NCBI GenBank assembly: GCA_964539645.1
Contig: CAZIJV010000030.1
Span: forward strand, 3,200-35,199
Direction: 5' to 3'
DNA length: 32,000 nt
DNA from: an uncultured Syntrophobacter sp.
GTDB lineage: Bacteria; Desulfobacterota; Syntrophobacteria; Syntrophobacterales; Syntrophobacteraceae
A program made the position numbers and the translations under genes. Every line of letters begins with the position of its first letter. Positions within the stretch are counted from its first letter, which is position 1. The notes under the pieces were generated by a model that worked only from the letters and a program-made list of their open reading frames with translations, made no database searches and had not been told where the DNA came from. Positions 4,431 through 22,490 of this stretch are shown piece by piece.

Positions 4431-5439
4431 TTTCGAACATTACCTTGACCTGCCGCTCATCTGGTTCGGGCTGATCGTCACCGCTCTTTTCCTTTACGTG
4501 CTGTTGGACGGGTTCGATCTCGGCGTGGGCATTCTTTTTCCCTTCGCTCCTTCCGACCAGTGCCGGGACCGGATGATGAATTCTATCGCCCCTTTCTGGG
4601 ACGGCAACGAGACCTGGCTGGTATTGAGCGGAGGAGGACTTTTTGCGGCCTTCCCCCTGGCATATGCCATACTGATGCCCGCGCTCTACATGCCGGTGAT
4701 CCTCATGCTGCTCGGACTCATCTTCCGGGGAGTGGCGTTCGAGTTCCGATTCAAGGCGGTCAAATCCCGGTTCATCTGGGATTACGCCTTTCATTTTGGC
4801 TCTCTTGTCGCTGCCTTCATGCAGGGCATGATCATCGGGGCCGTGGTGAAAGGGATCACTGTACAGGGCAGAAGCTTTGCGGGTCATCCGTTCGACTGGT
4901 TGAGCGCCTACAGCTTCATGACCGGCGTGGGGCTATTGTTCGGTTATGCGCTGCTCGGGTCTACGTGGCTCATAATGAAAACCGATGGAGTCACACAGGA
5001 TTGGGCGCGAAAATGCGCTTCCTATGTGCTCGGTTATGTAGGAGTATTTCTGGGAATCGTGAGCATCAGCATGCCGCTCATGCATGATTATGTAAAGACC
5101 CTGTGGTTCAGCCTTCCGAATTTTCTCTACCTGCTTCCCATACCGCTTATTACCGCGGGCTGTTTCATCCTTATGTGGTCCGATCTTCACAAGGGCAGGG
5201 AATACCGGCCTTTCTTCCTGAGCATCGGAATATTCCTCACGGGCTACCTCGGGCTGGGGATAAGCACCTGGCCGTGGCTGGTTCCTTTTGCCTTCACCTT
5301 CCGAGAGACGGCCGCCGCGGCCACCTCTCAGTCTTTTCTGCTGATCGGAACGGCAGTGGCGCTTCCGGTGGTGCTCATCTACACGGGTTTTTGCTATTAC
5401 CTGTTCAGGGGCAAAGTGTCCCATGAAAGCTATTACTGA
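4423..5439 (+). CDS. cydB: Cytochrome bd ubiquinol oxidase subunit II
   Basis: The N-terminus LPLIWFGLIVTALFLYVLLDGFDLGVGILFP and the motif WDGNETWLV are typical of CydB. The ATG at 4423 overlaps the cydA stop (ATGTTTAG, 8-nt overlap), which indicates translational coupling. GGAGG lies at 4413-4417. Confidence 0.92.
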   Translation: MFSFEHYLDLPLIWFGLIVTALFLYVLLDGFDLGVGILFPFAPSDQCRDRMMNSIAPFWDGNETWLVLSGGGLFAAFPLAYAILMPALYMPVILMLLGLIFRGVAFEFRFKAVKSRFIWDYAFHFGSLVAAFMQGMIIGAVVKGITVQGRSFAGHPFDWLSAYSFMTGVGLLFGYALLGSTWLIMKTDGVTQDWARKCASYVLGYVGVFLGIVSISMPLMHDYVKTLWFSLPNFLYLLPIPLITAGCFILMWSDLHKGREYRPFFLSIGIFLTGYLGLGISTWPWLVPFAFTFRETAAAATSQSFLLIGTAVALPVVLIYTGFCYYLFRGKVSHESYY

Positions 5440-5558
5440 GAGGGGGCTGATGTGCTCCGAGCCCTGTCCCCGTATCGAGGAACGTTTACAATTTGGGCTC
5501 TGTAAGTATCTTATTCTAAAGGACTTTCTAAACAGAATAAAAAACTCTGGAGCTTGAA

Positions 5559-5909
5559 ATGCACAACTATCCGCGGCCCAAGAGCAGTATGCCGAAAAAA
5601 CCCACCCGATCCAGCTTGCATCCGCATGGCGCCCCCAGCTTTTCTGAAACGCTGGAAGGGCTCAAGCGCGGACTGGCAAATCTCGGAGCGCATCTGGCCG
5701 GCGCCGGCGCCGGTATTGCCGGAAACCTGATCGGAGGCCTCATGAATCTCAAAAACTCGGCAAAAGAGGGAAACGAAGAGGCTGAGGAGGCCTACCTCGA
5801 AGCTCTTTCGCTTCTCCGCAACTCCGGGAGTGACTTTGCCGACAGCCTTCTGAAGGACCTGGGCGAGGAAACGGAAGAAAAGGAACAGGATCGGGAGAGC
5901 CTGCAATAG
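5559..5909 (+). CDS. Hypothetical small protein with a Gly/Ala-rich amphipathic core and an acidic C-terminus
   Basis: The ORF is 116 aa, with GGAG 7 nt upstream of the ATG (5548-5551). I preferred it over the fully overlapping antisense ORF 5511-5906, which lacks a comparable ribosome-binding site. I recognised no family. Confidence 0.4.
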   Translation: MHNYPRPKSSMPKKPTRSSLHPHGAPSFSETLEGLKRGLANLGAHLAGAGAGIAGNLIGGLMNLKNSAKEGNEEAEEAYLEALSLLRNSGSDFADSLLKDLGEETEEKEQDRESLQ

Positions 5910-6030: not shown

Positions 6031-6582
6031 ATGTCGAACGCGAAAGAATTTACGCTCTACAGCGGGGGGCTGAGGGGTTCTGAGGCTGAATTCGGAATCC
6101 AGGCCGAGAAGCATGGTGTCGGGGAAGTGACTTTTTCCTACGAGGGACACCAGTTGTCACGGGACAAGGGTCTGATCATGCTGAGTCCGGGAGAAATGAA
6201 AAGAGGCGACATCAGCATGGAAATCGTCTGTATGCGCATGAACCGGACCTACTCCAGCGCCGAGGCCATCCGCAAAGTGATGCAGATGATCTTCCACATG
6301 GTGAACAATGGGTTCCAGGTGTTTGCAGTCGGCTGGATTCAGCCGGACGACACCGTGAAAGGCGGAACCGGTTGGACCGTCGAACTGGCGAAACTGTTCA
6401 ACCGCCCTTTGAGTGTGTTCGACCAGGACCGTAAGGCCTGGTTTACCTGGAAAGACAACACCTGGGTGGAGAGTGCTCCGGTCATCGAACACAAGACTTT
6501 TGTCGGTACAGGCACGCGACACCTTTCCGAGGAAGGGAAAAAGGCCATTAGCGACCTTTTCCAACGCTCCTTCCGATCCTGA
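6031..6582 (+). CDS. Hypothetical protein, tentatively a SLOG/DprA-like Rossmann-fold nucleotide-binding protein
   Basis: I chose the start at ATG 6031, with AGGGAG at 6016-6021. The N-terminal LYSGGLRGSEAEFGIQAEKHG resembles the GGxxGxD/E glycine loop of DprA/LOG/DUF2493-type SLOG folds. The later GGTGWTVELAKLFNRPLSVFDQ resembles the second conserved GGT loop. The assignment is by eye only. Confidence 0.5.
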   Translation: MSNAKEFTLYSGGLRGSEAEFGIQAEKHGVGEVTFSYEGHQLSRDKGLIMLSPGEMKRGDISMEIVCMRMNRTYSSAEAIRKVMQMIFHMVNNGFQVFAVGWIQPDDTVKGGTGWTVELAKLFNRPLSVFDQDRKAWFTWKDNTWVESAPVIEHKTFVGTGTRHLSEEGKKAISDLFQRSFRS

Positions 6583-6655
6583 ATTCAGTTGCATTCTTTG
6601 GTGATCCCCGTGGACGCTTGCCATGTACCGGCATCCTGCAGGTGAGCGGATTTCC

Positions 6656-12525: not shown

Positions 12526-13779
12526 GTGGCACAGAGTGAAAAGCGCTATGTCATAGTGGGCGCCAGCGCGGCCGGCATGGCGGCTGCCGCGGCCATACGC
12601 GCAATCGACAGGCGCGGAACGGTCACCGTACTCTCCAATGAACCCGATCCGCCCTATTTCAGGCCGTTGATTCCCTTCCTGATCAGCGGAAAGAAAAAAG
12701 CGGCGGATATGGCGTTGACGGGGCAGGGGCCATATTCCGGCGACGGTATTGATGTCCGGATCAACTCGGGGGCCAGGAGAATCGAGCCCGGGGCGCAAAT
12801 TGTGGAGACCGCCGGCGGGGAGCGCCTCTCCTATGACCGGCTGCTTATTGCAACGGGCAGCAGTCCCTACATTCCGCCGGAGATCGAAGGGACCGGGACC
12901 GACGGCGTATATGCCCTGCGAACCCTTGCCGATGCCAGGGCCGCGGAAAGGCGCGTTGGGCAGTCGCGCCATGCCGTTATGCTGGGCGGCGGCATGTTGA
13001 ACCTCAAAGCGTCCTTTGCCCTGCTGGAGCGCGGGCTCAAAGTCACCATGATCGTCAAATCGCCCCAGGTGCTCTCTCAGTTGATGGAACCGGAGGATGC
13101 CGCCCTGATACGGGATGCGCTGAACAATGCAGGATTGAAGATAGAAACCGGCGCCGCTGCCCGCCGTATTCTATCGAACGGCAGGGGAGTAGACGGAGTC
13201 CTGCTCGACGACGGACGCACGATCCCCTGCGAGATGGTATGCATAGGAAAAGGGGTGCGGCCGAACGTTTCCTTCATCGACACGAAAGACATTAGAGTCG
13301 ACGGCGGAGTTGTCGCGGACCGGTACACGGCGTGCGGTGCGGTCAACGTCTTCGCTGCCGGAGATGTCGCCGTAACCTTCGACCCCATCACCGGCGGGCG
13401 CATAGTCACGGGCCTTTGGACCAACGCCGTGGAGATGGGCAAATGCGCCGGCGCCAACATGGCAGGCAGGCCGACGGAATACGGCGGCACGTTCGGCATC
13501 CTGAACGCGACACAGGTGGCGGACGTCGCCTTCGTCTCCATGGGAATCGCGCACACAACCGGACGCGACTATGAAGTCCATGTGGCCGCCTCGCGCAATG
13601 CCTACCGCAAAACGGTCTTTTCTCCCGACGGCGCCCGCCTGGTGGGGGTTTTGCTGGTGGGAGACATTTCCAGGGCCGGGCTGTACCGCTGCCTGATACG
13701 GGACAGGATGCCGATCTCGAGCATTAAATCGAACATCATCGATCATACCCTGCACTACGGGCATTTTATGTGCCGTTAG
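12526..13779 (+). CDS. FAD-dependent pyridine-nucleotide-disulfide-family oxidoreductase
   Basis: The GTG start lies 2 nt after the ferredoxin stop. The N-terminal dinucleotide fold is YVIVGASAAGMAAAAAI. A second Rossmann motif (AVMLGGGMLNLK) and the FAAGDVA FAD motif are present. The gene is probably co-translated with the upstream ferredoxin as a two-subunit redox enzyme. Confidence 0.85.
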   Translation: MAQSEKRYVIVGASAAGMAAAAAIRAIDRRGTVTVLSNEPDPPYFRPLIPFLISGKKKAADMALTGQGPYSGDGIDVRINSGARRIEPGAQIVETAGGERLSYDRLLIATGSSPYIPPEIEGTGTDGVYALRTLADARAAERRVGQSRHAVMLGGGMLNLKASFALLERGLKVTMIVKSPQVLSQLMEPEDAALIRDALNNAGLKIETGAAARRILSNGRGVDGVLLDDGRTIPCEMVCIGKGVRPNVSFIDTKDIRVDGGVVADRYTACGAVNVFAAGDVAVTFDPITGGRIVTGLWTNAVEMGKCAGANMAGRPTEYGGTFGILNATQVADVAFVSMGIAHTTGRDYEVHVAASRNAYRKTVFSPDGARLVGVLLVGDISRAGLYRCLIRDRMPISSIKSNIIDHTLHYGHFMCR

Positions 13780-13978
13780 GTAACGGTCTCTGATGGCAGG
13801 CCCGGGGGCGCATACCACCCGATGACTCTGATCGGTAGTGCGAAAACCGAAGGGTTTGGAAAGCTGATTGGCGGAGTGCAAAAATGTGAAGTTTCGCTTG
13901 GGTCTGAGGCTGTAATAGTATGATTTGGATCTTTTGAGCAAAAAGACAGGCCCGTGCATGAATACATAGGAGAGGTAT
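13657..13978 (+). repeat. Copy A of the repeated segment: the functional 3' end of the oxidoreductase gene plus about 200 nt of downstream tail
   Basis: 13657-13698 is identical to 17794-17835 (42/42 nt by eye). Further shared blocks are GGTAGTGCGAAAACC (13834-13848 = 17972-17986) and CTTTTGAGCAAAAAGACAG (13931-13949 versus about 18195-18213). Weaker protein-level similarity extends back to about 13546. Confidence 0.8.
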
Positions 13979-14092: not shown

Positions 14093-14455
14093 TTATACCC
14101 ATTTCATTTCATCAAAGTTTCTGAAAGATCCTCCACACGGGCACTCTGTGGAGACATCTTCATATTTCGTCGTGCCGCATTTTGGACAGATAACGATACG
14201 GGGTTGTTTCACAAATTTGCAGTAGAGCAGTCCAAAAACAAAGCCACAAAGCAAAGACCAAGGCAGACGATGAAGAAGCTCATCGGTAGGCACAAGAGAC
14301 TGACCGCGGAGCATCGCCTCTCTCCATCCATATACGAGTAGAGTCATAAGACCTACCAAGAACCCGACAAATGCCGCGGCAAGAGCATGTCCCACACGGC
14401 GCTTCAATTTTTGCTTTACAAGCTCTTCCGGTGTTCTTTCTACCCACATATACAC
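14093..14455 (-). CDS. Small membrane protein with a C-terminal zinc ribbon (2 predicted TM helices plus CPKCG...CPCGG)
   Basis: The ORF is 120 aa. Hydrophobic segments are ALAAAFVGFLVGLMTLLVYGW and WSLLCGFVFGLLY. The C-terminus carries ICPKCGTTKYEDVSTECPCGG. It is co-directional with the TIR operon. Confidence 0.55.
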   Translation of the reverse strand: MYMWVERTPEELVKQKLKRRVGHALAAAFVGFLVGLMTLLVYGWREAMLRGQSLVPTDELLHRLPWSLLCGFVFGLLYCKFVKQPRIVICPKCGTTKYEDVSTECPCGGSFRNFDEMKWV

Positions 14456-14822: not shown

Positions 14823-16076
14823 TCAAGTGCAACGACCCTGAATAAAGTTGCCGACGATGTCCTCATAAATTGACTCGGCTGGTTCAAAAAAATCGAACAT
14901 TACGAATAGCGGATTCATCAATTCACGAGTCTTTTCCACCACACCACGATCCGACAATGGATGTTCGAACTGGATCGCACGTCCACAAGAATCCGCAGAA
15001 GCTTTGCTTTCCTGCCACATTATTCTACTTGGATTCGAGGTTGATAATTTGCGTCCCTTGATCCCTGAGTGACGAATCCGAAGCTGAACGGTCGCACCAT
15101 TCTGGACGCCTAGGTTAGTATACAGATTTCTACAATAAAGGAGCGCTTCTGCCGTTTGTACAATACGCGTATTAAAGAAAATAGCGTTGGGGTCCCTATC
15201 ATTCTCGAAGAGGTTTCGAGCGAGATAGAAATCTCCGTTCAGACGCAAAGCCCAATAATCAAATGACTCATGTTGGGTAAATCGGCTGGCTATCCTCGCA
15301 ACAATTCCATCTTCATCTGGAGTTGGCTTGCCATTATCCACGTGCAAAACGGCACCAATTGGCCAACCAAACGTCTTAATTTCCGAACGCTCAGCGACGT
15401 TTAGTAGCATTCGATGATCACTCCTCAATGAATCGGTTGAAGCACCGAACTCAACCTCCATGAAGGCGCCTCGGCGTTGCACCTCCGACATCGCTTCTGA
15501 TTGGTGTCTATGGAACCATTCATCTGCGAAGACGTCACGAACAGGGGATGAGATATAGGGATTTGTACCAAGCGGGGGTTTTGGGTTAAACGGTGCCTCG
15601 TGGAGCACGCGGGTTAGCTTTTCAAGATTACGGGAATAGTCCGCATCCACTTCAAAGTCGATATACATCTTGGTTTGAAGAAATGGAGGGAGCGTCTTAC
15701 TGGGATTATTCCTCAATATAGGGATAAACTTTACCACACCGCGATTCTGAAGGATCTCAGCTGTAACCAGCATCGTCTCATAACCGACTCCCCCCTTGCC
15801 CGCTACAGCCTTCTGAACGTAGTTCGCAGAACACACGATCACAACACGATCTACCGATGCCAAATGTTCCATAAACCTGGCAACATCATCTCCAGGCTTG
15901 AGGTCCCATACATCGAGAACCGCGTCAACACCTTTATTCCGGAGCTCGCTTGCAAGATGGAGAACCCAGTTCTTGTGATCGGCTGAATCATGTGAGTACG
16001 AAATAAAAACTCTCGGTGCCTGGGGCCGTGCTCGTAACGCATCGAGTTGTTCTTTTCCACTAATTCTGTCGCTCAT
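14823..16076 (-). CDS. TIR/SEFIR (STIR-superfamily) domain protein with a C-terminal domain of about 250 aa and unknown function
   Basis: The N-terminal roughly 160 aa match the bacterial TIR layout. VFISYSHDSADHKNWVLHLASELRNKGVDAVLDVWDLKPGDDVARFMEHL covers beta-A, alpha-A, beta-B and the BB-loop. VVIVCSANYVQKAVAGKGGVGYE follows, with a conserved Glu in the position of the NADase catalytic residue. GGAGAGG lies within the last codons of the upstream gene, about 9 nt before the ATG. Confidence 0.8.
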   Translation of the reverse strand: MSDRISGKEQLDALRARPQAPRVFISYSHDSADHKNWVLHLASELRNKGVDAVLDVWDLKPGDDVARFMEHLASVDRVVIVCSANYVQKAVAGKGGVGYETMLVTAEILQNRGVVKFIPILRNNPSKTLPPFLQTKMYIDFEVDADYSRNLEKLTRVLHEAPFNPKPPLGTNPYISSPVRDVFADEWFHRHQSEAMSEVQRRGAFMEVEFGASTDSLRSDHRMLLNVAERSEIKTFGWPIGAVLHVDNGKPTPDEDGIVARIASRFTQHESFDYWALRLNGDFYLARNLFENDRDPNAIFFNTRIVQTAEALLYCRNLYTNLGVQNGATVQLRIRHSGIKGRKLSTSNPSRIMWQESKASADSCGRAIQFEHPLSDRGVVEKTRELMNPLFVMFDFFEPAESIYEDIVGNFIQGRCT

Positions 16077-16079
16077 TGT

Positions 16080-16580
16080 TTAGGCCCTCTCCAATTCGAT
16101 GACATCAAAAAGCTCCGTGGGCAATTCTTCGATGACATACTCCGGTGATAGAGGATGCGCCCGTTTCGGCACCGGAACTTCCTTGAGCAGGTGAGAAACG
16201 CCTACAAAAGGAATCAAATAAAGAAGCGGACGAAAATCCGCACATTCTGCGGCGGCGGCAATTTCCTCAATTTTGCGTAACTCATCATCCGTGATGATAC
16301 CGGCACTGTGCTTATTCTGTGCGCCGTCGATTAGACTCGATCTGTTGCCAGTAATCTTGGTGCTGTGACCGTCACGACGACGAACCTCTTCAGCCAGGCT
16401 GTGATAGATATCTGAAGGACAGGAGGTCGGCGGCGGAGTGGCATGGTATCCCGGATGGTTTCGAGCGCTGAATACCGGAGAGCACCAGACATAGTGCACG
16501 CCTCCATAATAGAGAACGGAGATATTATACGCTAGCCAGGTGTTCACTGAATAGAGGAGGTTGTGCTTTTTAGGGTTCAT
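16080..16580 (-). CDS. Hypothetical protein (166 aa), translationally coupled partner of the TIR-domain gene
   Basis: The stop codon TAA (16080-16082) lies 3 nt from the TIR gene ATG (16076). I recognised no family. The composition is protein-like (WLAYNISVLYYGGVHYVWCSP...IITDDELRKIEEIAAAAE). Confidence 0.65.
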   Translation of the reverse strand: MNPKKHNLLYSVNTWLAYNISVLYYGGVHYVWCSPVFSARNHPGYHATPPPTSCPSDIYHSLAEEVRRRDGHSTKITGNRSSLIDGAQNKHSAGIITDDELRKIEEIAAAAECADFRPLLYLIPFVGVSHLLKEVPVPKRAHPLSPEYVIEELPTELFDVIELERA

Positions 16581-16974: not shown

Positions 16975-17571
16975 TCAGGCTGGATTGGCAGCCATCCAGG
17001 TTTCAATGTCTCGAATCAAGGCGTTCATGAGCTTTTTGGCGGCTTTGGATTTGCCTTCAACCGCGTTTGTCGTCACAGTCTCCCAATACGAGGCGCCCTC
17101 ATGGGAGTCAATGTGGTATGTATTCCCGTACACTTTTTCCTTCGCTCTTATCTCAATGGCAACATCCAGGGTATATCGCTGGTTGCCGGGAAAATGATGG
17201 GTTTGGGCAAACAGGATTCGGATCCTCAAGTCAGGATCAGTATTTTGCTCAGGAGCCGCCACTCTCAGCAATCCAAGCCTATTCAGTTCATTTGCCAATG
17301 ATGAAATGAAAATCTTCTGGTCTGCCTTGCCAAAGTGCAATTCAGGGTACGGTCCGGAGGAAATCGGAACGGCAAGAACGGTGCTTCCGGCGATGATTGG
17401 CATCATCCCGACTCCGCTTGATCCGCCCACCGCCCCTCCGAGCAGCTCAATGGTCGCCGTCTTTGAAGATGTCACCAGCACGGGTTTGTCGTATGATGGA
17501 GGCGCCAGCCGGAGATCTCTGGCGCAGCCGGTCGACATTGCAATGCAGATCAAAAGCGGTATTATTTTCAT
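16975..17571 (-). CDS. Putative lipoprotein (198 aa)
   Basis: I chose the internal ATG at 17571, which gives MKIIPLLICIAMSTGC. This is a signal peptide with a lipobox-like STGC cysteine. I recognised no family for the mature part. Confidence 0.6.
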   Translation of the reverse strand: MKIIPLLICIAMSTGCARDLRLAPPSYDKPVLVTSSKTATIELLGGAVGGSSGVGMMPIIAGSTVLAVPISSGPYPELHFGKADQKIFISSLANELNRLGLLRVAAPEQNTDPDLRIRILFAQTHHFPGNQRYTLDVAIEIRAKEKVYGNTYHIDSHEGASYWETVTTNAVEGKSKAAKKLMNALIRDIETWMAANPA

Positions 17572-17662
17572 GGTATTCTTCCGACTATGTAGCTGATTTG
17601 AGGTTCGCGGATCTTTGCTGAGCTGAGTTCTACCCCAGTAATGGCTCAACGGCAAGCATCAA

Positions 17663-18230
17663 TCGCGGGCGGCCCCGGCAACGGGGACTATGTTGCCGGG
17701 GCCCGAAGGACAAGGGGAATGAGCAATTGTCAATCATTCCGTTGTCCCTCTTGTCTCCGGCACGGGCAACAAAACCCGCTGCCAGTCTCACCCGTGGGAG
17801 ACATTTCCAGGGCCGGGCTGTACCGCTGCCTGATAAGGACAAGATGCCGATCTAGGATATAAAAGGAAGCATCATCTGTCATTGCGTGCGTTACGGACAT
17901 TTTATGCGCCGTTAGCAATGGCGCGTGGTGGCTGCCCCGGAGGCGCATGTCGCCCGATGACACGAGGCACAGGTAGTGCGAAAACCAAGGGATCTAGAAA
18001 GCTGAATGGCGCCTAAGGCCAAAGGCAAAAAATGGATATCCTGAAAAGGTTGAATCCTGAGCTTTTGAAGGAGCGGCTTCCAACCTCTCCGACAAGGCAG
18101 TTCGTGAAGCCCGGATAAGCATTATTTGGCATCGGCCTAAGTGTAAGAATTCAGAACTGCGCTTGGGTCTGAGCTGTAATGGTATGATCTAAATCTTTTG
18201 AGCAAAAAGACAGATCCATAGGAGAGATAC
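17663..18230 (+). pseudogene. Copy B: non-functional remnant of an oxidoreductase 3' end (last ~75 codons) plus its downstream tail
   Basis: The translation IAGGPGNGDYVAG...PVGDISRAGLYRCLIR aligns to the gene's IAHTTGRDYEVHV...LVGDISRAGLYRCLIRD. There is a 42-nt exact match to 13657-13698. The tail blocks are shared with 13780-13978. A roughly 124-nt extra segment (18018-18141) is absent from copy A. The remnant has no start codon and no upstream gene body. Confidence 0.75.
17747..17796. repeat. Hairpin element, degenerate copy (B)
   Basis: CCCTCTTGTCTCCGGCACGGGCAACAAAACCCGCTGCCAGTCTCACCCGT aligns to the elements at 21245-21296 and 22206-22256. The stem is eroded in this copy. Confidence 0.6.
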
Positions 18231-18327: not shown

Positions 18328-19467
18328 TTACTTCTTGCGGCCATTTCTCCCGCTTAATTTTGCCCAGCTGTAACGGACTGGGTCCAGCGCAAGAAGATGG
18401 TTGCATAAATCTATTTTCTTGGTTTTTTCGGCCCGCATGAAAATGCTACGCAATTCATCATCCACTGACTCTTCGGTAAAACCTCGTTCGACAGCTTTTT
18501 CATACCAGGTTCGTCCCAGTTCATGATTACCGATTTCATAATTCACAGCACCCAACAGCGTGCAGGGACGGAAATCCTGCGGCGTTAGCAGGTGAGCTTG
18601 CTCGCCCAGACTTAATGCATCATCTAATTTCCCCAAATCTCTTTTCGCACCGCCATGCGTCGTGCAAATCGCGGACTTCAGCTTCACATTCTTTAAACCA
18701 GACAAATGAATCATACTTAACATCGTATCCGCAGTCTTCGATTCCCCGCACTTGCGATAATGGCTGCTTGCGTTGACTGCAAACCAATGATCTTTGGATT
18801 TTTCAAACTCACCTGCATAATAATCGGCCTCGTTCCTATGGTAGCGTTTTCTTAATGCGGGAGTGCAATAATCTTTACCTTCTGTCTTAAGCCAAACAAC
18901 CTCATCCTCGGATAGCCGAACCCTATTATCCACGCGTCTCAGAATTTTCATGAGAGTTGGAAAGTGGTACCTTTCGATAAAATCATACAGGTCATATTTG
19001 TGCCTCAGCTCTATTTGCAACAATCTTGCTATATTTCTTGGATCATTATCGAAAGCACGCTTTTCTGCTGCCCATCGTTCTTGTATTTGCCTTTGTCTAG
19101 CTTGCATGACCTCATCTTTCAACTTCTGCTCGGCTTGTTCTTTAAGAGCCCTGGCCTCAGCAGCAAGACAACGCTCGGATTGCTCTGATTTTGCCTCCTT
19201 CAAAAAATTTGAAAAGGTGAATTTTCCTCTTGCGTAACTGAGGAGTGCCAGAAGCCCCTTGTTGTGTAAGAATTCTAGGGCTGCACCAGAGATCCGATCT
19301 CCCAAGTCCAACTGCTTCAGTATATTGGACAGGCGGCTAAAAGGGATTAACGCGCCAGGCAGATCGTCAACACAATACTTGATTGCCGCTTCGGCAGGTG
19401 AGAGTTCCGTTGATGAAACGTTTAGCTTCTGAGGACCATCGTCGCGATCTCTGGTTTGGTTTCTCAT
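18328..19467 (-). CDS. Hypothetical protein with a central coiled-coil and a C-terminal TPR/Sel1-like helical repeat region (379 aa)
   Basis: The ORF is long and sits in an AT-rich block. The charged heptad-like stretch is EARALKEQAEQKLKDEVMQARQRQIQERWAAEKRAF. C-terminal helical repeats are present (...NHELGRTWYEKAVERGF...). I recognised no catalytic motif. Confidence 0.6.
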   Translation of the reverse strand: MRNQTRDRDDGPQKLNVSSTELSPAEAAIKYCVDDLPGALIPFSRLSNILKQLDLGDRISGAALEFLHNKGLLALLSYARGKFTFSNFLKEAKSEQSERCLAAEARALKEQAEQKLKDEVMQARQRQIQERWAAEKRAFDNDPRNIARLLQIELRHKYDLYDFIERYHFPTLMKILRRVDNRVRLSEDEVVWLKTEGKDYCTPALRKRYHRNEADYYAGEFEKSKDHWFAVNASSHYRKCGESKTADTMLSMIHLSGLKNVKLKSAICTTHGGAKRDLGKLDDALSLGEQAHLLTPQDFRPCTLLGAVNYEIGNHELGRTWYEKAVERGFTEESVDDELRSIFMRAEKTKKIDLCNHLLALDPVRYSWAKLSGRNGRKK

Positions 19468-20048: not shown

Positions 20049-20447
20049 ATGCGCTTATTTGTGGATCAACTGAAGATCTGCGAGGGTGAAGATCCGGAGC
20101 ATCTCTTTGGGCCGGAATTGCTTCCCCTCATTGTAATGCGCCTGCCTTCCAATCCCGGCAGAGTCATGCTAAATTGGATAGAAGATGGTAGTGATGCATC
20201 CGATTTGGAGGCCTTCATGAGAAAAGAGAGAATAGAGTACGGCTCATCAGTTGATGCTCTGGTTGTCGTGGCTAAGCGCCTGAGCGTTTACGAAAATCGA
20301 TACGGAATGACTTCTGAAGATTTCTATGACAAATACCGGAGAGGCCGGATAGAGGATTCGGTAGATTTCGTCGAATGGGCCAACGAGTACCAACACTTTG
20401 TGACCATTCGGCTCGAAATAGAGAAGCACATTAGCCATGTTGCCTGA
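20049..20447 (+). CDS. Hypothetical protein, possible antitoxin-like partner of the downstream truncated toxin remnant
   Basis: The ORF is 132 aa. Its C-terminal part (RLSVYENRYGMTSEDFYDKYRRGRIEDSVDFVEWANEYQ) resembles small helical proteins found upstream of DUF6516-type genes. Its stop TGA overlaps the ATG of the next ORF (TGATG). The true start may be an internal Met. Confidence 0.45.
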   Translation: MRLFVDQLKICEGEDPEHLFGPELLPLIVMRLPSNPGRVMLNWIEDGSDASDLEAFMRKERIEYGSSVDALVVVAKRLSVYENRYGMTSEDFYDKYRRGRIEDSVDFVEWANEYQHFVTIRLEIEKHISHVA

Positions 20448-20614
20448 TGCACTGCGCGATATTCCGCTACGATAACACTCCACACTTTTCCGGGTTGGAG
20501 CATTTCCCTCACCATAAACATTCGGAGAGGGGAGTCACGGACTGCGAAAGGCCATCCATTCCTGAAGTAGTCGAAGAGACAAGGCGGTATTCCGACGGAA
20601 AGCTTATGGTGTGA
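20447..20614 (+). pseudogene. Truncated DUF6516/TumE-like toxin remnant (55 codons, C-terminal half only)
   Basis: My hand translation from ATG 20447 is MHCAIFRYDNTPHFSGLEHFPHHKHSERGVTDCERPSIPEVVEETRRYSDGKLMV*. The RYDNxPH...FPHHKH signature is what I remember for the DUF6516 (TumE) family. Those proteins are normally about twice this length, so the N-terminal half appears to be missing. Confidence 0.55.
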
Positions 20615-21173: not shown

Positions 21174-21355
21174 TCGCGGGCGCCCGGGCAGCGGCTATTG
21201 GCTGTCTGTGTCCGAAGGACAGAGGATGTTTCCACAACTGCCAACCCCTCTTGCTTCCGCACGGGCAACGGAAAAGCCGTTGCCCGTGTCACCCGTTGAC
21301 ATTGCTTTCCAGCGAAGGTATGTTTTCATTGTGCCTCAATTTCCGACAAGGAGGA
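21174..21355 (+). repeat. Copy D: partial degenerate copy of the oxidoreductase 3'-end segment, including the best-preserved hairpin element
   Basis: 21174-21260 aligns to 17663-17761 (TCGCGGGCG..CCCGAAGGACA..CCCTCTTGCTTCCGCACGGGCAAC). 21289-21355 aligns loosely to 13657-13713 (TCACCCGTTGACATTGCTTTCCAGCGAAGG versus GTGGGAGACATTTCCAGGGCCGGG). The copy ends exactly where the antitoxin gene starts. Confidence 0.55.
21245..21296. repeat. Hairpin element, best copy (D): 12-bp perfect stem
   Basis: CACGGGCAACGG (21260-21271) and CCGTTGCCCGTG (21277-21288) are exact reverse complements, with loop AAAAG. The flanks CCCCTCTTGCTTCCG and TCACCCGT are shared with the other copies. Confidence 0.8.
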
Positions 21356-21574: not shown

Positions 21575-21720
21575 TTTCGAGTGTAACCTCCGGATTTCGG
21601 AAAGTTTATCGACATAATCCTCTCTCAACTTTAAAATGCCCTCTGGCGCCCTGGCCTATCCTTACAGACAAAAGCCTGTCAAATGAGCGGCTACTTCAAA
21701 TCCGGCAGTTCGTCCCGTGA
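21571..21720 (+). pseudogene. Truncated RelE/ParE-like toxin remnant (49 codons)
   Basis: The hand translation is MISSVTSGFRKVYRHNPLSTLKCPLAPWPILTDKSLSNERLLQIRQFVP*. Only the first ~15 residues (SGFRKVYRH) resemble a RelE/ParE N-terminus (F-R/K-K-x-Y-K/R-K/H-L). The rest is unrelated and overlaps the 3' end of the convergent gene at 21691-21900. Confidence 0.4.
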
Positions 21721-21900
21721 GAGTAGCAACTTCATGCTCCGGGGTTCATTGGGCTTCTTCGCTATGAATCCCTTCTTATCGAGCTGAACGACCATATTGC
21801 GTACACTGGGCGGCGTAGTATGAAAATAGCTCTGTATGTCAGCTTCGACCGGCGGCCGGCAGTCATCCCTTGTGCCTGCTACATTCGGTAATATGATCAT
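21691..21900 (-). CDS. LexA/MarR-like winged-helix DNA-binding protein fragment (69 aa), possibly frameshifted
   Basis: RPPVEADIQSYFHTTPPSVRNMVVQLDKKGFIAKKPNEPRSMKLLLSRDELPDLK matches the GRPPAEADIQxYFxVTPPSVHxMxxxLExKGxIxRxPGxxRSIxLL pattern of small LexA-N-terminal-like regulators. The usual N-terminal helix is missing in this frame. Confidence 0.5.
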   Translation of the reverse strand: MIILPNVAGTRDDCRPPVEADIQSYFHTTPPSVRNMVVQLDKKGFIAKKPNEPRSMKLLLSRDELPDLK

Positions 21901-22195: not shown

Positions 22196-22205
22196 AAATG
22201 CCCAA

Positions 22206-22256
22206 TCCCCCCTGCCGCCGCACGGGCAACGAAAAAGCCGTTGCCCGTGCCACCCT
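22206..22256. repeat. Hairpin element copy (E): 11-bp perfect stem
   Basis: CACGGGCAACG (22221-22231) and CGTTGCCCGTG (22239-22249) are exact reverse complements. The flanks CCCCCCTGCCGCCG and CCACCC are similar to those of copy D. Confidence 0.75.
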
Positions 22257-22361: not shown

Positions 22362-22490
22362 TCTTGAAATTGCCTTGCTGTACGACAATCATATCCAAAA
22401 CCACCGGCTTTTCATGTGCAGTCAGCAACGGTCCCTGACGCAGACCCTGCCGGGGGGGCGCATACCACGGAATGATCCGAATCAGGGACT
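22362..22490 (+). repeat. Copy C: degenerate copy of the distal part of the oxidoreductase 3' end (last ~20 codons, stop, and about 60 nt of tail)
   Basis: CTTGAAATTGCCTTGCTGTACGACAATCATATCCAAAACCACCGGCTTTTCATGTGCAGTCAGCAACGGTCCCTGACGCAGACCCTGCCGGGGGGGCGCATACCACGGAATGATCCGAATCAGG aligns to 13716-13836. At protein level, EIALLYDNHIQNHRLFMCS aligns to SIKSNIIDHTLHYGHFMCR. GGCGCATACCAC is shared. Confidence 0.65.

Follow-up and report, generated by a model that had tools for sequence, protein, structure and literature searches.

We analyzed a stretch of 32,000 nucleotides from an uncultured Syntrophobacter sp. (GenBank assembly GCA_964539645.1, contig CAZIJV010000030.1, positions 3,200 to 35,199 of the forward strand), hereafter called the window. 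Its reverse strand carries two coupled genes, one for a protein of 166 amino acids (aa) and, directly downstream, one for a protein of 417 aa. The larger protein begins with a SEFIR domain, the bacterial counterpart of the signaling domain of the IL-17 receptor and Act1. The features of the pair are listed below in window positions, each with the basis of its assignment.

16080..16580, (-): gene for the 166-aa partner protein; open reading frame (ORF) listing, homologues and AlphaFold2 (AF2) model
16086..16092, (-): GGAGAGG ribosome-binding site of the SEFIR gene; visible in the sequence itself
14823..16076, (-): gene for the 417-aa SEFIR-domain protein; ORF, stop codon at 14823-14825 included
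16032..16070, (-): clade-specific N-terminal helix, residues 3-15 (DRISGKEQLDALR); extension alignment, position-specific scoring matrix (PSSM) and AF2
15615..16013, (-): SEFIR (TIR-like) domain, residues ~22-154; Pfam, PADLOC, PDB 5Y8E and Foldseek
15777-15779, (-): codon of the putative catalytic Glu100; invariant in the family alignment
14826..15521, (-): C-terminal alpha/beta domain, residues ~186-417; conservation across homologues and domain swaps

The stop codon of the 166-aa gene (TAA, 16082-16080) and the start codon of the SEFIR gene (ATG, 16076-16074) are separated by the 3-nt spacer ACA. The ribosome-binding site of the SEFIR gene sits 9 nt 5' of its ATG, within the final codons of the 166-aa gene. 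An earlier note on this DNA, made from the letters alone, had proposed both ORFs and a tight translational coupling; this was borne out, with exact coordinates and the ribosome-binding site embedded in the upstream gene. A gap of 2-3 nt is also kept in locus L001 (Desulfosarcina ovata, DSCO28_21420/21410) and in L002. The same geometry recurs in metagenomes, and a protein pair identical to that of the window is present in biogas and anaerobic-digester metagenomes.

The 166-aa partner was found only with SEFIR proteins that are 65-79% identical to that of the window. This clade spans Desulfobacterota and Betaproteobacteria. In all nine independent loci of the clade with DNA (the window, L001, L002, L012 and L081-L085), the 166-aa gene lies directly upstream of the SEFIR gene, which supports the earlier view of a coupled pair and shows that the operon is tight and conserved. 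Some 20 more matches of SEFIR and partner sit on equal-sized contigs. One apparent pair inferred from equal-sized contigs, P0112/P0158, was a coincidence and was rejected. None of the ~30 SEFIR loci at 39-46% identity has the partner; all of them stand alone. As a separate observation, a BrnA-antitoxin-like gene was seen 66 nt 5' of the stand-alone SEFIR homologue P0092 (L004-L007:5638-5934), so that other SEFIR clades may have different small upstream partners.

The identity of the N-terminal half was addressed with several libraries. The PADLOC bSEFIR model matched residues 20-209 of the 417-aa protein (1.1e-68, 231 bits, positions 38-227 of the hidden Markov model, HMM). A profile of the family searched against the PDB found the Bacillus cereus SEFIR domain 5Y8E at 4.8e-40 and TIR structures at 5.5e-7 or worse. 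Foldseek with the AF2 model (mean predicted local distance difference test, pLDDT, 86.7) returned 5y8e at E 6e-9. With the PDB profile and PADLOC, the SEFIR match thus exceeded the TIR match, which is the criterion of Millman et al. for a SEFIR protein; in the Pfam scan of residues 22-154, TIR_2 (1e-21, 78 bits) came out above SEFIR (1.1e-14, 55 bits). E100 of the motif GGVGYE is invariant in 71/71 family members and aligns with GGVGTE of 5Y8E. The TIR-like layout and the Glu described before are therefore present, but SEFIR is the more precise assignment of the domain.

As published, SEFIR is an anti-phage system of a single protein (Millman et al. 2022, 10.1101/2022.05.11.491447; Bacillus sp. 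NIO-1130), and its NAD+ depletion runs via the N-terminal SEFIR domain (Osterman et al., 10.1101/2024.02.11.579819). The trigger and the control of SEFIR are not stated in 10.1101/2022.05.11.491447 or 10.1101/2024.02.11.579819. The earlier note had held that the pair resembled no known system, and had named a match to an existing one as a reason to drop its proposal. The N-terminal half of the 417-aa protein is that of the named single-gene system SEFIR/bSEFIR; the 417-aa protein is thus no orphan TIR, the first view is not supported in that form, and the reason for dropping the proposal applies by half. The window protein is an effector of the known SEFIR/bSEFIR kind through its N-terminal domain, and departs from it in its C-terminal domain and in its single-gene status.

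The 417-aa protein has more than 3,100 homologues that can be aligned to 95-100% of its length, and invariant residues are spread over the whole C-terminal domain, among them W187, E207, TFGWP235-239, FE290-291 and R304. The C-terminal domain is therefore real and family-wide. With its ~230 aa, nothing significant was found in Pfam, PADLOC or NCBIfam and no sequence was matched in the PDB; PHROGs returned a weak match (E 0.006) to a family of unknown function. Thus, the earlier statement that this region matches nothing recognizable stands for Pfam, PADLOC, NCBIfam and the PDB, but the domain is shared by the more than 3,100 SEFIR proteins. A whole-protein Foldseek search for its fold gave SEFIR/TIR matches and TIR-APAZ chains, the latter with a root-mean-square deviation of ~25 Å (TM-score ~0.27). 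These matches were rejected as driven by the TIR domain.

For comparison with the validated Bacillus bSEFIR, homologues from Bacillus plasmids served as proxies; a search with the 5Y8E sequence gave short proteins only. Two of these plasmid SEFIRs match the bSEFIR HMM at 37-385 and 37-365 of 412 positions (352 and 334 bits), and the distant relatives P0092, P0106 and P0044 match it only at ~35-203. In hhalign, the Bacillus proteins align to the profile of the window family over residues 5-171 only, and 0/152 matches of the plasmid search run beyond residue ~174. Judged by these alignments, the window family's C-terminal domain is different from that of Bacillus-type bSEFIR.

A metagenome scan recovered the C-terminal domain on its own (~246 aa; L139, L143, L157), behind SEFIR, and behind a ParA-like KGGVGR NTPase (L160). 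In the commonest metagenome context (26 loci, L118-L159), it follows a highly conserved domain of ~150 aa (QAFIIMQIGN...ADLTNERPNCYLEVGYAMG). By eye, this head domain resembles the nucleoside 2-deoxyribosyltransferase/TIR-like family; searches with it gave no significant PDB match and a nucleoside 2-deoxyribosyltransferase match at E = 1. A metagenome scan with exact peptides gave no match. The modularity of the C-terminal domain would fit a sensor or regulatory module with exchangeable effector heads, and it is presumed to be such a module here.

We then turned to the 166-aa protein. It has 143 close homologues (44-88% identity), and in an exhaustive profile search its family comprised 773 clusters at 50% identity. 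The mean column identity of the family is 54-61%, with Y10, S11, H29, W32, C33, P51, D70, H72, S73, R140, H142, S145, E147 and D159 invariant or nearly so. The AF2 model is an alpha/beta structure with a pLDDT of 90.6. The window protein had no match in Pfam, NCBIfam, PADLOC or PHROGs; Pfam over all 105 family members gave no consistent match; and a PDB sequence-profile search with the family gave none. Foldseek of the model against the PDB and BFVD found nothing at E <0.05, the best matches having TM-scores of at most 0.4, and no similarity of the fold to SLOG, SAVED, CARF, PUA or HAD domains. A weak lead was the NAD-dependent Tpt1/KptA of the ADP-ribosyltransferase (ART) superfamily (E 0.16, TM 0.33). 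No homology was detected between the 166-aa and SEFIR families. The claim that the partner fits no family therefore survived searches of four libraries, PDB sequences and two Foldseek libraries. A literature search turned up neither an account of the 166-aa family nor any partner of SEFIR. The idea of an undescribed module accordingly holds for the 166-aa family in the literature searched, but not for the effector, whose N-terminal domain is the known SEFIR.

A genome scan for the 166-aa family yielded 60 loci from many phyla, and the proteins encoded downstream were clustered. The gene directly 3' of the 166-aa homologue is nearly always tightly coupled to it, with gaps of ~-29 to +19 nt. In 31/60 loci the downstream partner is a helical protein of ~115 aa, which we call the adaptor and which is poorly conserved (27% mean identity). 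A family of ~300 aa takes this place in 10/60 loci; its N-terminus weakly resembles the adaptor (hhalign E 1.3e-3). SEFIR is the downstream partner in only one of the 60 (L012). The expectation that homologues of the 166-aa gene would co-occur with the TIR architecture of the window thus fails for the family at large, which mostly occurs with the ~115-aa protein.

Both components are also found fused to other domains. The adaptor is fused to TdeIII restriction endonuclease (Pfam 4e-91), to SIR2_2 with tetratricopeptide (TPR) repeats, to multi-pass membrane segments, to a GIY-YIG-like domain (weak match) and to a sigma-70 region-4 helix-turn-helix (HTH; L076). The 166-aa domain stands C-terminal to TIR_2 (four clusters), HNH, calcineurin-like phosphoesterase and receiver (REC) domains. 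The fusion with the phosphoesterase (Metallophos-166) retains an adaptor gene 16 nt downstream, and one protein, P0388, is a direct fusion of 166-aa domain and adaptor. By domain content, this makes a strong case of guilt by association between the 166-aa family and defense-type effector domains. The family ranges over Acidobacteriota, Bacteroidota, Planctomycetota, Proteobacteria, Chloroflexota and Bacillota, a conjugative plasmid and a phage. On the conjugative Sinorhizobium plasmid, both genes of the 166-adaptor pair are annotated 'hypothetical'. The Christensenellales phage PV036454.1 encodes a 174-aa 166-homologue and an overlapping 122-aa gene (L080:3486-4378), which form a moron-like, oppositely oriented insert between the portal and HNH endonuclease genes.

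Some further arrangements were seen around 166-aa homologues. The TIR-166 fusion P0337 has a ThsB_TIR gene adjacent downstream, and in L073:3032-4279 a TIR-166 fusion is followed by a 415-aa protein with a DVFISYRG motif. That TIR-166 fusions are trailed by further TIR-like genes hints at Thoeris-like multi-TIR arrangements. In Oxalobacteraceae (L043, L044, L047 and L071, ~5430-5900), a DUF7684 protein (best E 8.5e-48) is encoded apparently by an ORF of ~140 aa just 5' of the 166-aa homologue, and may be a third conserved component in this lineage.

A link between the adaptor and the window clade was found at the N-terminus of the SEFIR proteins. In-clade SEFIRs carry an N-terminal extension of 21-22 residues with the consensus MSDKSRGKEQLEALRA..QAPR (15/15 and 5/5 proteins), whereas out-of-clade SEFIRs have only 0-11 residues before VFISYSH (56/56 and ~28/28). 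In hhalign of the adaptor against the SEFIR profile, the sole match placed the C-terminal motif of the adaptor on this extension; no homology was found between the adaptor and the SEFIR C-terminal domain. A PSSM was built from 24 adaptor C-termini (DxxRGxxLLxxLR), and 4,800 random windows served as null, with a maximum of 7.4 bits. The median score of the in-clade extensions was 13.4 bits, and in every case they were in register at residue 3. No clade member deviates at R15, and conservation in the clade reaches 90% or more at L11 and L14. The AF2 model has a helix at residues 4-15 of the SEFIR protein, with low pLDDT. In adaptor-effector fusions, the DxxRGxxLLxxLR motif lies where the two parts join, just ahead of the effector. 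Independently, an ECF-sigma-like protein 3' of another 166-aa homologue bears the same tag at its N-terminus (SRARGQEVLGALR; L008, 12.4 bits). The motif is also found in L074, L060, L025 and L036, all above the maximum of the whole-protein null (9.4 bits); in L051 it scores 8.5 bits, above the 99th percentile of that null and below its maximum.

Based on these results, we propose that the pair represents the SEFIR abortive-infection system in a two-gene form, a reading to which we assign a probability of roughly 0.45. The 417-aa protein would be the effector, whose SEFIR domain with the catalytic-type Glu100 would hydrolyze NAD+ once activated, and its conserved C-terminal domain would serve as a sensing or oligomerization module. 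The 166-aa protein would be a regulatory subunit borrowed from a separate and widespread module of 166-aa protein and ~115-aa adaptor. In the SEFIR clade, the adaptor would have been reduced to its C-terminal helix (consensus DKSRGKEQLEALR) and grafted onto the SEFIR N-terminus. The 166-aa protein would dock on this helix and thereby gate the NADase: it would keep the enzyme inactive until triggered, or would pass on a signal sensed in its own conserved pocket. As far as the alignments go, docking of the 166-aa protein on the N-terminal helix probably controls the NADase. It is docking, the direction of regulation, NADase activity and anti-phage function that we infer here; what was observed, as described, is how the genes are arranged, which domains they encode, the co-occurrence confined to the clade, the similarity of the motif and the network of fusions.

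A wider reading concerns the family as a whole. The 166-aa protein and the helical adaptor may be the core of an undescribed, widespread modular conflict or immunity switch, with the helix transplant as part of its wiring; we regard this as tentative and somewhat short of an even chance. Such a switch would serve at least eight effector types (SEFIR, TIR, SIR2, HNH, TdeIII, GIY-YIG-like, metallophosphatase and membrane proteins), and would be wired to them by fusion or by a docking helix of ~13 residues moved onto a stand-alone defense protein.

The pair was compared with known systems. Like bSEFIR, the window protein has an N-terminal SEFIR domain followed by a KPPLG linker, a GGVG-E motif with the conserved Glu, a total length of ~410-480 aa, and the effector domain placed N-terminally with a second domain at the C-terminus. 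Unlike bSEFIR, its family has a C-terminal domain that is not homologous to the Bacillus one, and its clade has an extra N-terminal helix and an obligatorily linked upstream 166-aa gene; the single-gene feature of bSEFIR is thus missing from the window clade, where the coupled upstream gene was present in 9/9 loci. With Thoeris, the pair shares a TIR-superfamily protein and a second, non-TIR protein in a small operon, as well as NAD+ chemistry, and some 166-domain proteins are fused to TIR, one of them adjoining a ThsB_TIR gene. However, the fold of the 166-aa protein is unlike SLOG, and Thoeris was rejected, as Pfam, PADLOC and NCBIfam found no ThsA, SLOG, SIR2 or Macro partner in the 166-aa protein and the neighbors. 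The NCBIfam Thoeris models stayed far below their cutoffs (ThcB4, 16.7 bits versus 220). SPARTA or another short prokaryotic Argonaute (pAgo) system was likewise rejected: the nearest ORFs of at least 100 aa (14093-14455, 16975-17655 and 18328-19467; 120-379 aa) had no Argonaute or PIWI match in Pfam, PADLOC and NCBIfam. The effector-associated adaptor domains of NTPase-centered conflict systems, reportedly described by Kaur, Burroughs, Iyer and Aravind in 2020, resemble our case in that a short helical module occurs on unrelated effectors and apparently couples them to a conserved core. They differ in that no STAND/NTPase core is present here, where instead a ~13-residue helix or ~115-aa domain goes with the 166-aa protein.

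Three other explanations have to be weighed against a two-gene SEFIR system. The pair may derive from a core of the toxin-antitoxin type, with the 166-aa protein as an enzyme or toxin and the downstream helical protein, here the SEFIR helix, as its neutralizer. In this case SEFIR would have two roles, as the antitoxin-like partner and as a second effector that is set free by disturbance of the complex. We consider this unlikely, yet worth serious attention. Type II toxin-antitoxin systems with the toxin first (HigBA, DarTG) have the same two small, overlapping or tightly coupled co-directional genes as the 166-adaptor pairs, with the toxin-like gene leading. The conservation of the 166-aa protein (54-61%, with invariant polar S11, C33, H72 and E147) against 27% for the adaptor is the usual pattern of toxin and antitoxin, a conserved first gene followed by a fast-evolving helical one. 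The pairs are scattered and mobile, with housekeeping genes as neighbors and with cases on a conjugative plasmid and, as a moron, in a phage; some adaptors have a DNA-binding HTH (L076), as do autoregulating antitoxins; and there are the weak fold hints to the NAD-using Tpt1/KptA. On the other hand, the 166-aa protein matched no known toxin family or fold (best Foldseek E >=0.05, TM <=0.4), and neither toxins nor antitoxins of any known family were matched in Pfam, PADLOC and NCBIfam. At 417 aa, the SEFIR protein is no small antitoxin, and in the SEFIR variant only 13-17 residues of the 'antitoxin' are left. Both components are repeatedly fused to large effector domains, which is atypical of toxin-antitoxin systems, and the REC, TIR and HNH fusions of the 166-aa protein fit a regulatory or sensor domain at least equally well. 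Alternatively, the 166-aa protein may be a sensor of small molecules or an enzyme that clears a signal, and may determine the threshold at which the SEFIR NADase is activated, through binding or breakdown of a nucleotide or NAD-derived signal instead of through protein docking. This seems distinctly unlikely to us. The effectors of CBASS, Thoeris and type III CRISPR have an effector-then-sensor layout, which the TIR-166, HNH-166 and Metallophos-166 fusions mirror. The dense invariant polar residues of the 166-aa family and the ThsB_TIR gene next to one TIR-166 fusion point the same way. Metis provides a precedent, as an accessory enzyme prevents the auto-toxicity of an NAD+-depleting effector (10.1101/2025.11.05.686725). 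It consists of MisA, with PUA-like and metallophosphatase domains, and the HAD phosphatase MisB (10.1101/2025.11.05.686725), and resembles our pair as a two-gene operon in which a small conserved accessory restrains an NAD+-depleting effector; the 166-aa domain, too, has a fusion with a calcineurin-like phosphoesterase. The domain order of this Metallophos-166 fusion is opposite to that of MisA, however, and Metis itself was rejected, since Pfam found no HAD, PUA or Metallophos domain in either window protein. A sensor role leaves the conserved adaptor and the transfer of the helix to SEFIR unexplained; moreover, no signal-generating enzyme is conserved beside the 166-aa pairs, and the 166-aa fold is dissimilar to SLOG, SAVED, CARF, PUA and HAD.

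The remaining explanation is that SEFIR works alone, like bSEFIR, and that the 166-aa gene has no relation to it, being a selfish or regulatory gene that one lineage picked up by chance at the upstream position and that has traveled along with it. The single-protein nature of the published bSEFIR, the ~30 out-of-clade SEFIR loci that stand alone, the confinement of the association to one clade and the persistence of the SEFIR ORF in L012, where a stop breaks the extension, all speak for it. We nevertheless find it improbable. The spacing of 2-3 nt and the embedded ribosome-binding site are kept down to 65% identity and across Desulfobacterota and Betaproteobacteria, the clade-specific N-terminal helix is conserved with R15 invariant, this helix is similar to the protein with which the 166-aa family is normally paired, and fusions of the 166-aa domain to TIR exist elsewhere.

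Several observations weigh against a helix-gated SEFIR system as we propose it. The helix of the window itself (DRISGKEQLDALR) scores only 6.0 bits (p ~0.002) and has Ser where the consensus has Arg. The ~300-aa family, L076 and P0388 lack the motif, which is therefore not a universal interface. In L012, a metagenome-assembled genome of Betaproteobacteria, the extension (6496-6620) has an in-frame stop (VMSDKTR*EEQLEALR, the asterisk marking the stop), which may reflect an error of sequencing, recoding at this site or a lost helix. Because the SEFIR-166 pairs all come from a single clade, the correlation of extension with partner amounts in effect to one evolutionary event. The C-terminal domain is unlike that of the Bacillus-type proteins that match bSEFIR end to end, so that NADase and defense activity are extrapolated from the SEFIR domain alone. 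Finally, the 166-aa loci show no enrichment in defense islands: 122 neighboring ORFs from 40 loci were mostly housekeeping genes with one-off PADLOC matches. The defense-island context that had been suggested for the pair therefore does not extend to the 166-aa family as a whole.

The surroundings of the pair in the window were also inspected. The G+C content over the pair is 0.48-0.51, against 0.58-0.65 at 10-13.5 kb, which confirms the AT-richer block noted before. The att-like duplications reported in the same place were also recovered: 13657-13949 is repeated at 17794-18213 with 74-98% identity. The two copies, and the toxin-antitoxin genes further along, are as follows.

13657..13949, (+): att-like repeat, left copy; 3' end of the Pyr_redox_2 gene (12526-13779) and ~170 nt downstream
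17794..18213, (+): att-like repeat, right degenerate copy; 74-98% identity to the left copy
20049-20447, (+): TumA antitoxin, intact; NCBIfam 4.5e-33, above cutoff
20447-20614, (+): TumE remnant, 55 aa; matches only the last 41 positions of the toxin TumE

The att-like repeats bound an islet of ~4.1 kb that contains the pair (repeat families D1 and D3-D7). A 22-nt repeat core has a third copy at 22454-22475, with spacings of about 4.1 and 4.5 kb. This layout suggests that two tandem islets (~4.1-4.5 kb) accreted at one integration site. A search for tRNA genes found none, and no integrase was seen inside the islets; in L001 and L002, transposases and integrases flank the pair. An Rfam scan of the window found no element, and no convincing sigma-70 promoter was seen. 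By their sequence matches, TumA and the TumE remnant are a decayed toxin-antitoxin module in the second islet. The toxin-antitoxin debris mentioned in the earlier note thus exists, but it lies in the islet next to that of the pair.

The second islet has a low G+C content (~0.45). Its largest gene encodes a 379-aa protein (18328-19467, (-)) with a weak TPR signal only. A 69-aa ORF (21691-21900, (-)) has weak similarity to the N-terminal DNA-binding domain of LexA (E 9e-4) and may be a repressor fragment. Two 54-nt copies, 87% identical and 961 nt apart (21241-21294 and 22202-22255), each contain a perfect-looking palindrome, GCACGGGCAACGnAAAAGCCGTTGCCCGTG. They could be elements resembling repetitive extragenic palindromes (REP), miniature inverted-repeat transposable elements (MITE) or terminators that flank the segment at 21.3-22.2 kb.

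In summary, the 166-aa protein appears to be a novel partner, accessory or regulatory, of an anti-phage effector whose kind is known. A conserved partner that apparently docks on a dedicated helix gives a testable handle on how SEFIR NADases are kept off and turned on. Members of the 166-aa family are joined again and again to effectors of the TIR, SIR2, nuclease and membrane types; in comparative genomics, this is the pattern that stood behind earlier discoveries of defense systems, and there is a reasonable chance that the 166-aa protein and its adaptor form a separate, new modular conflict system. Since the family is not enriched in defense islands, island-based screens would miss it. If the proposed transplant of the helix is true, it adds a new regulatory layer to SEFIR NADases, and a transplantable docking helix would be an unusual route for the modular evolution of immune systems.

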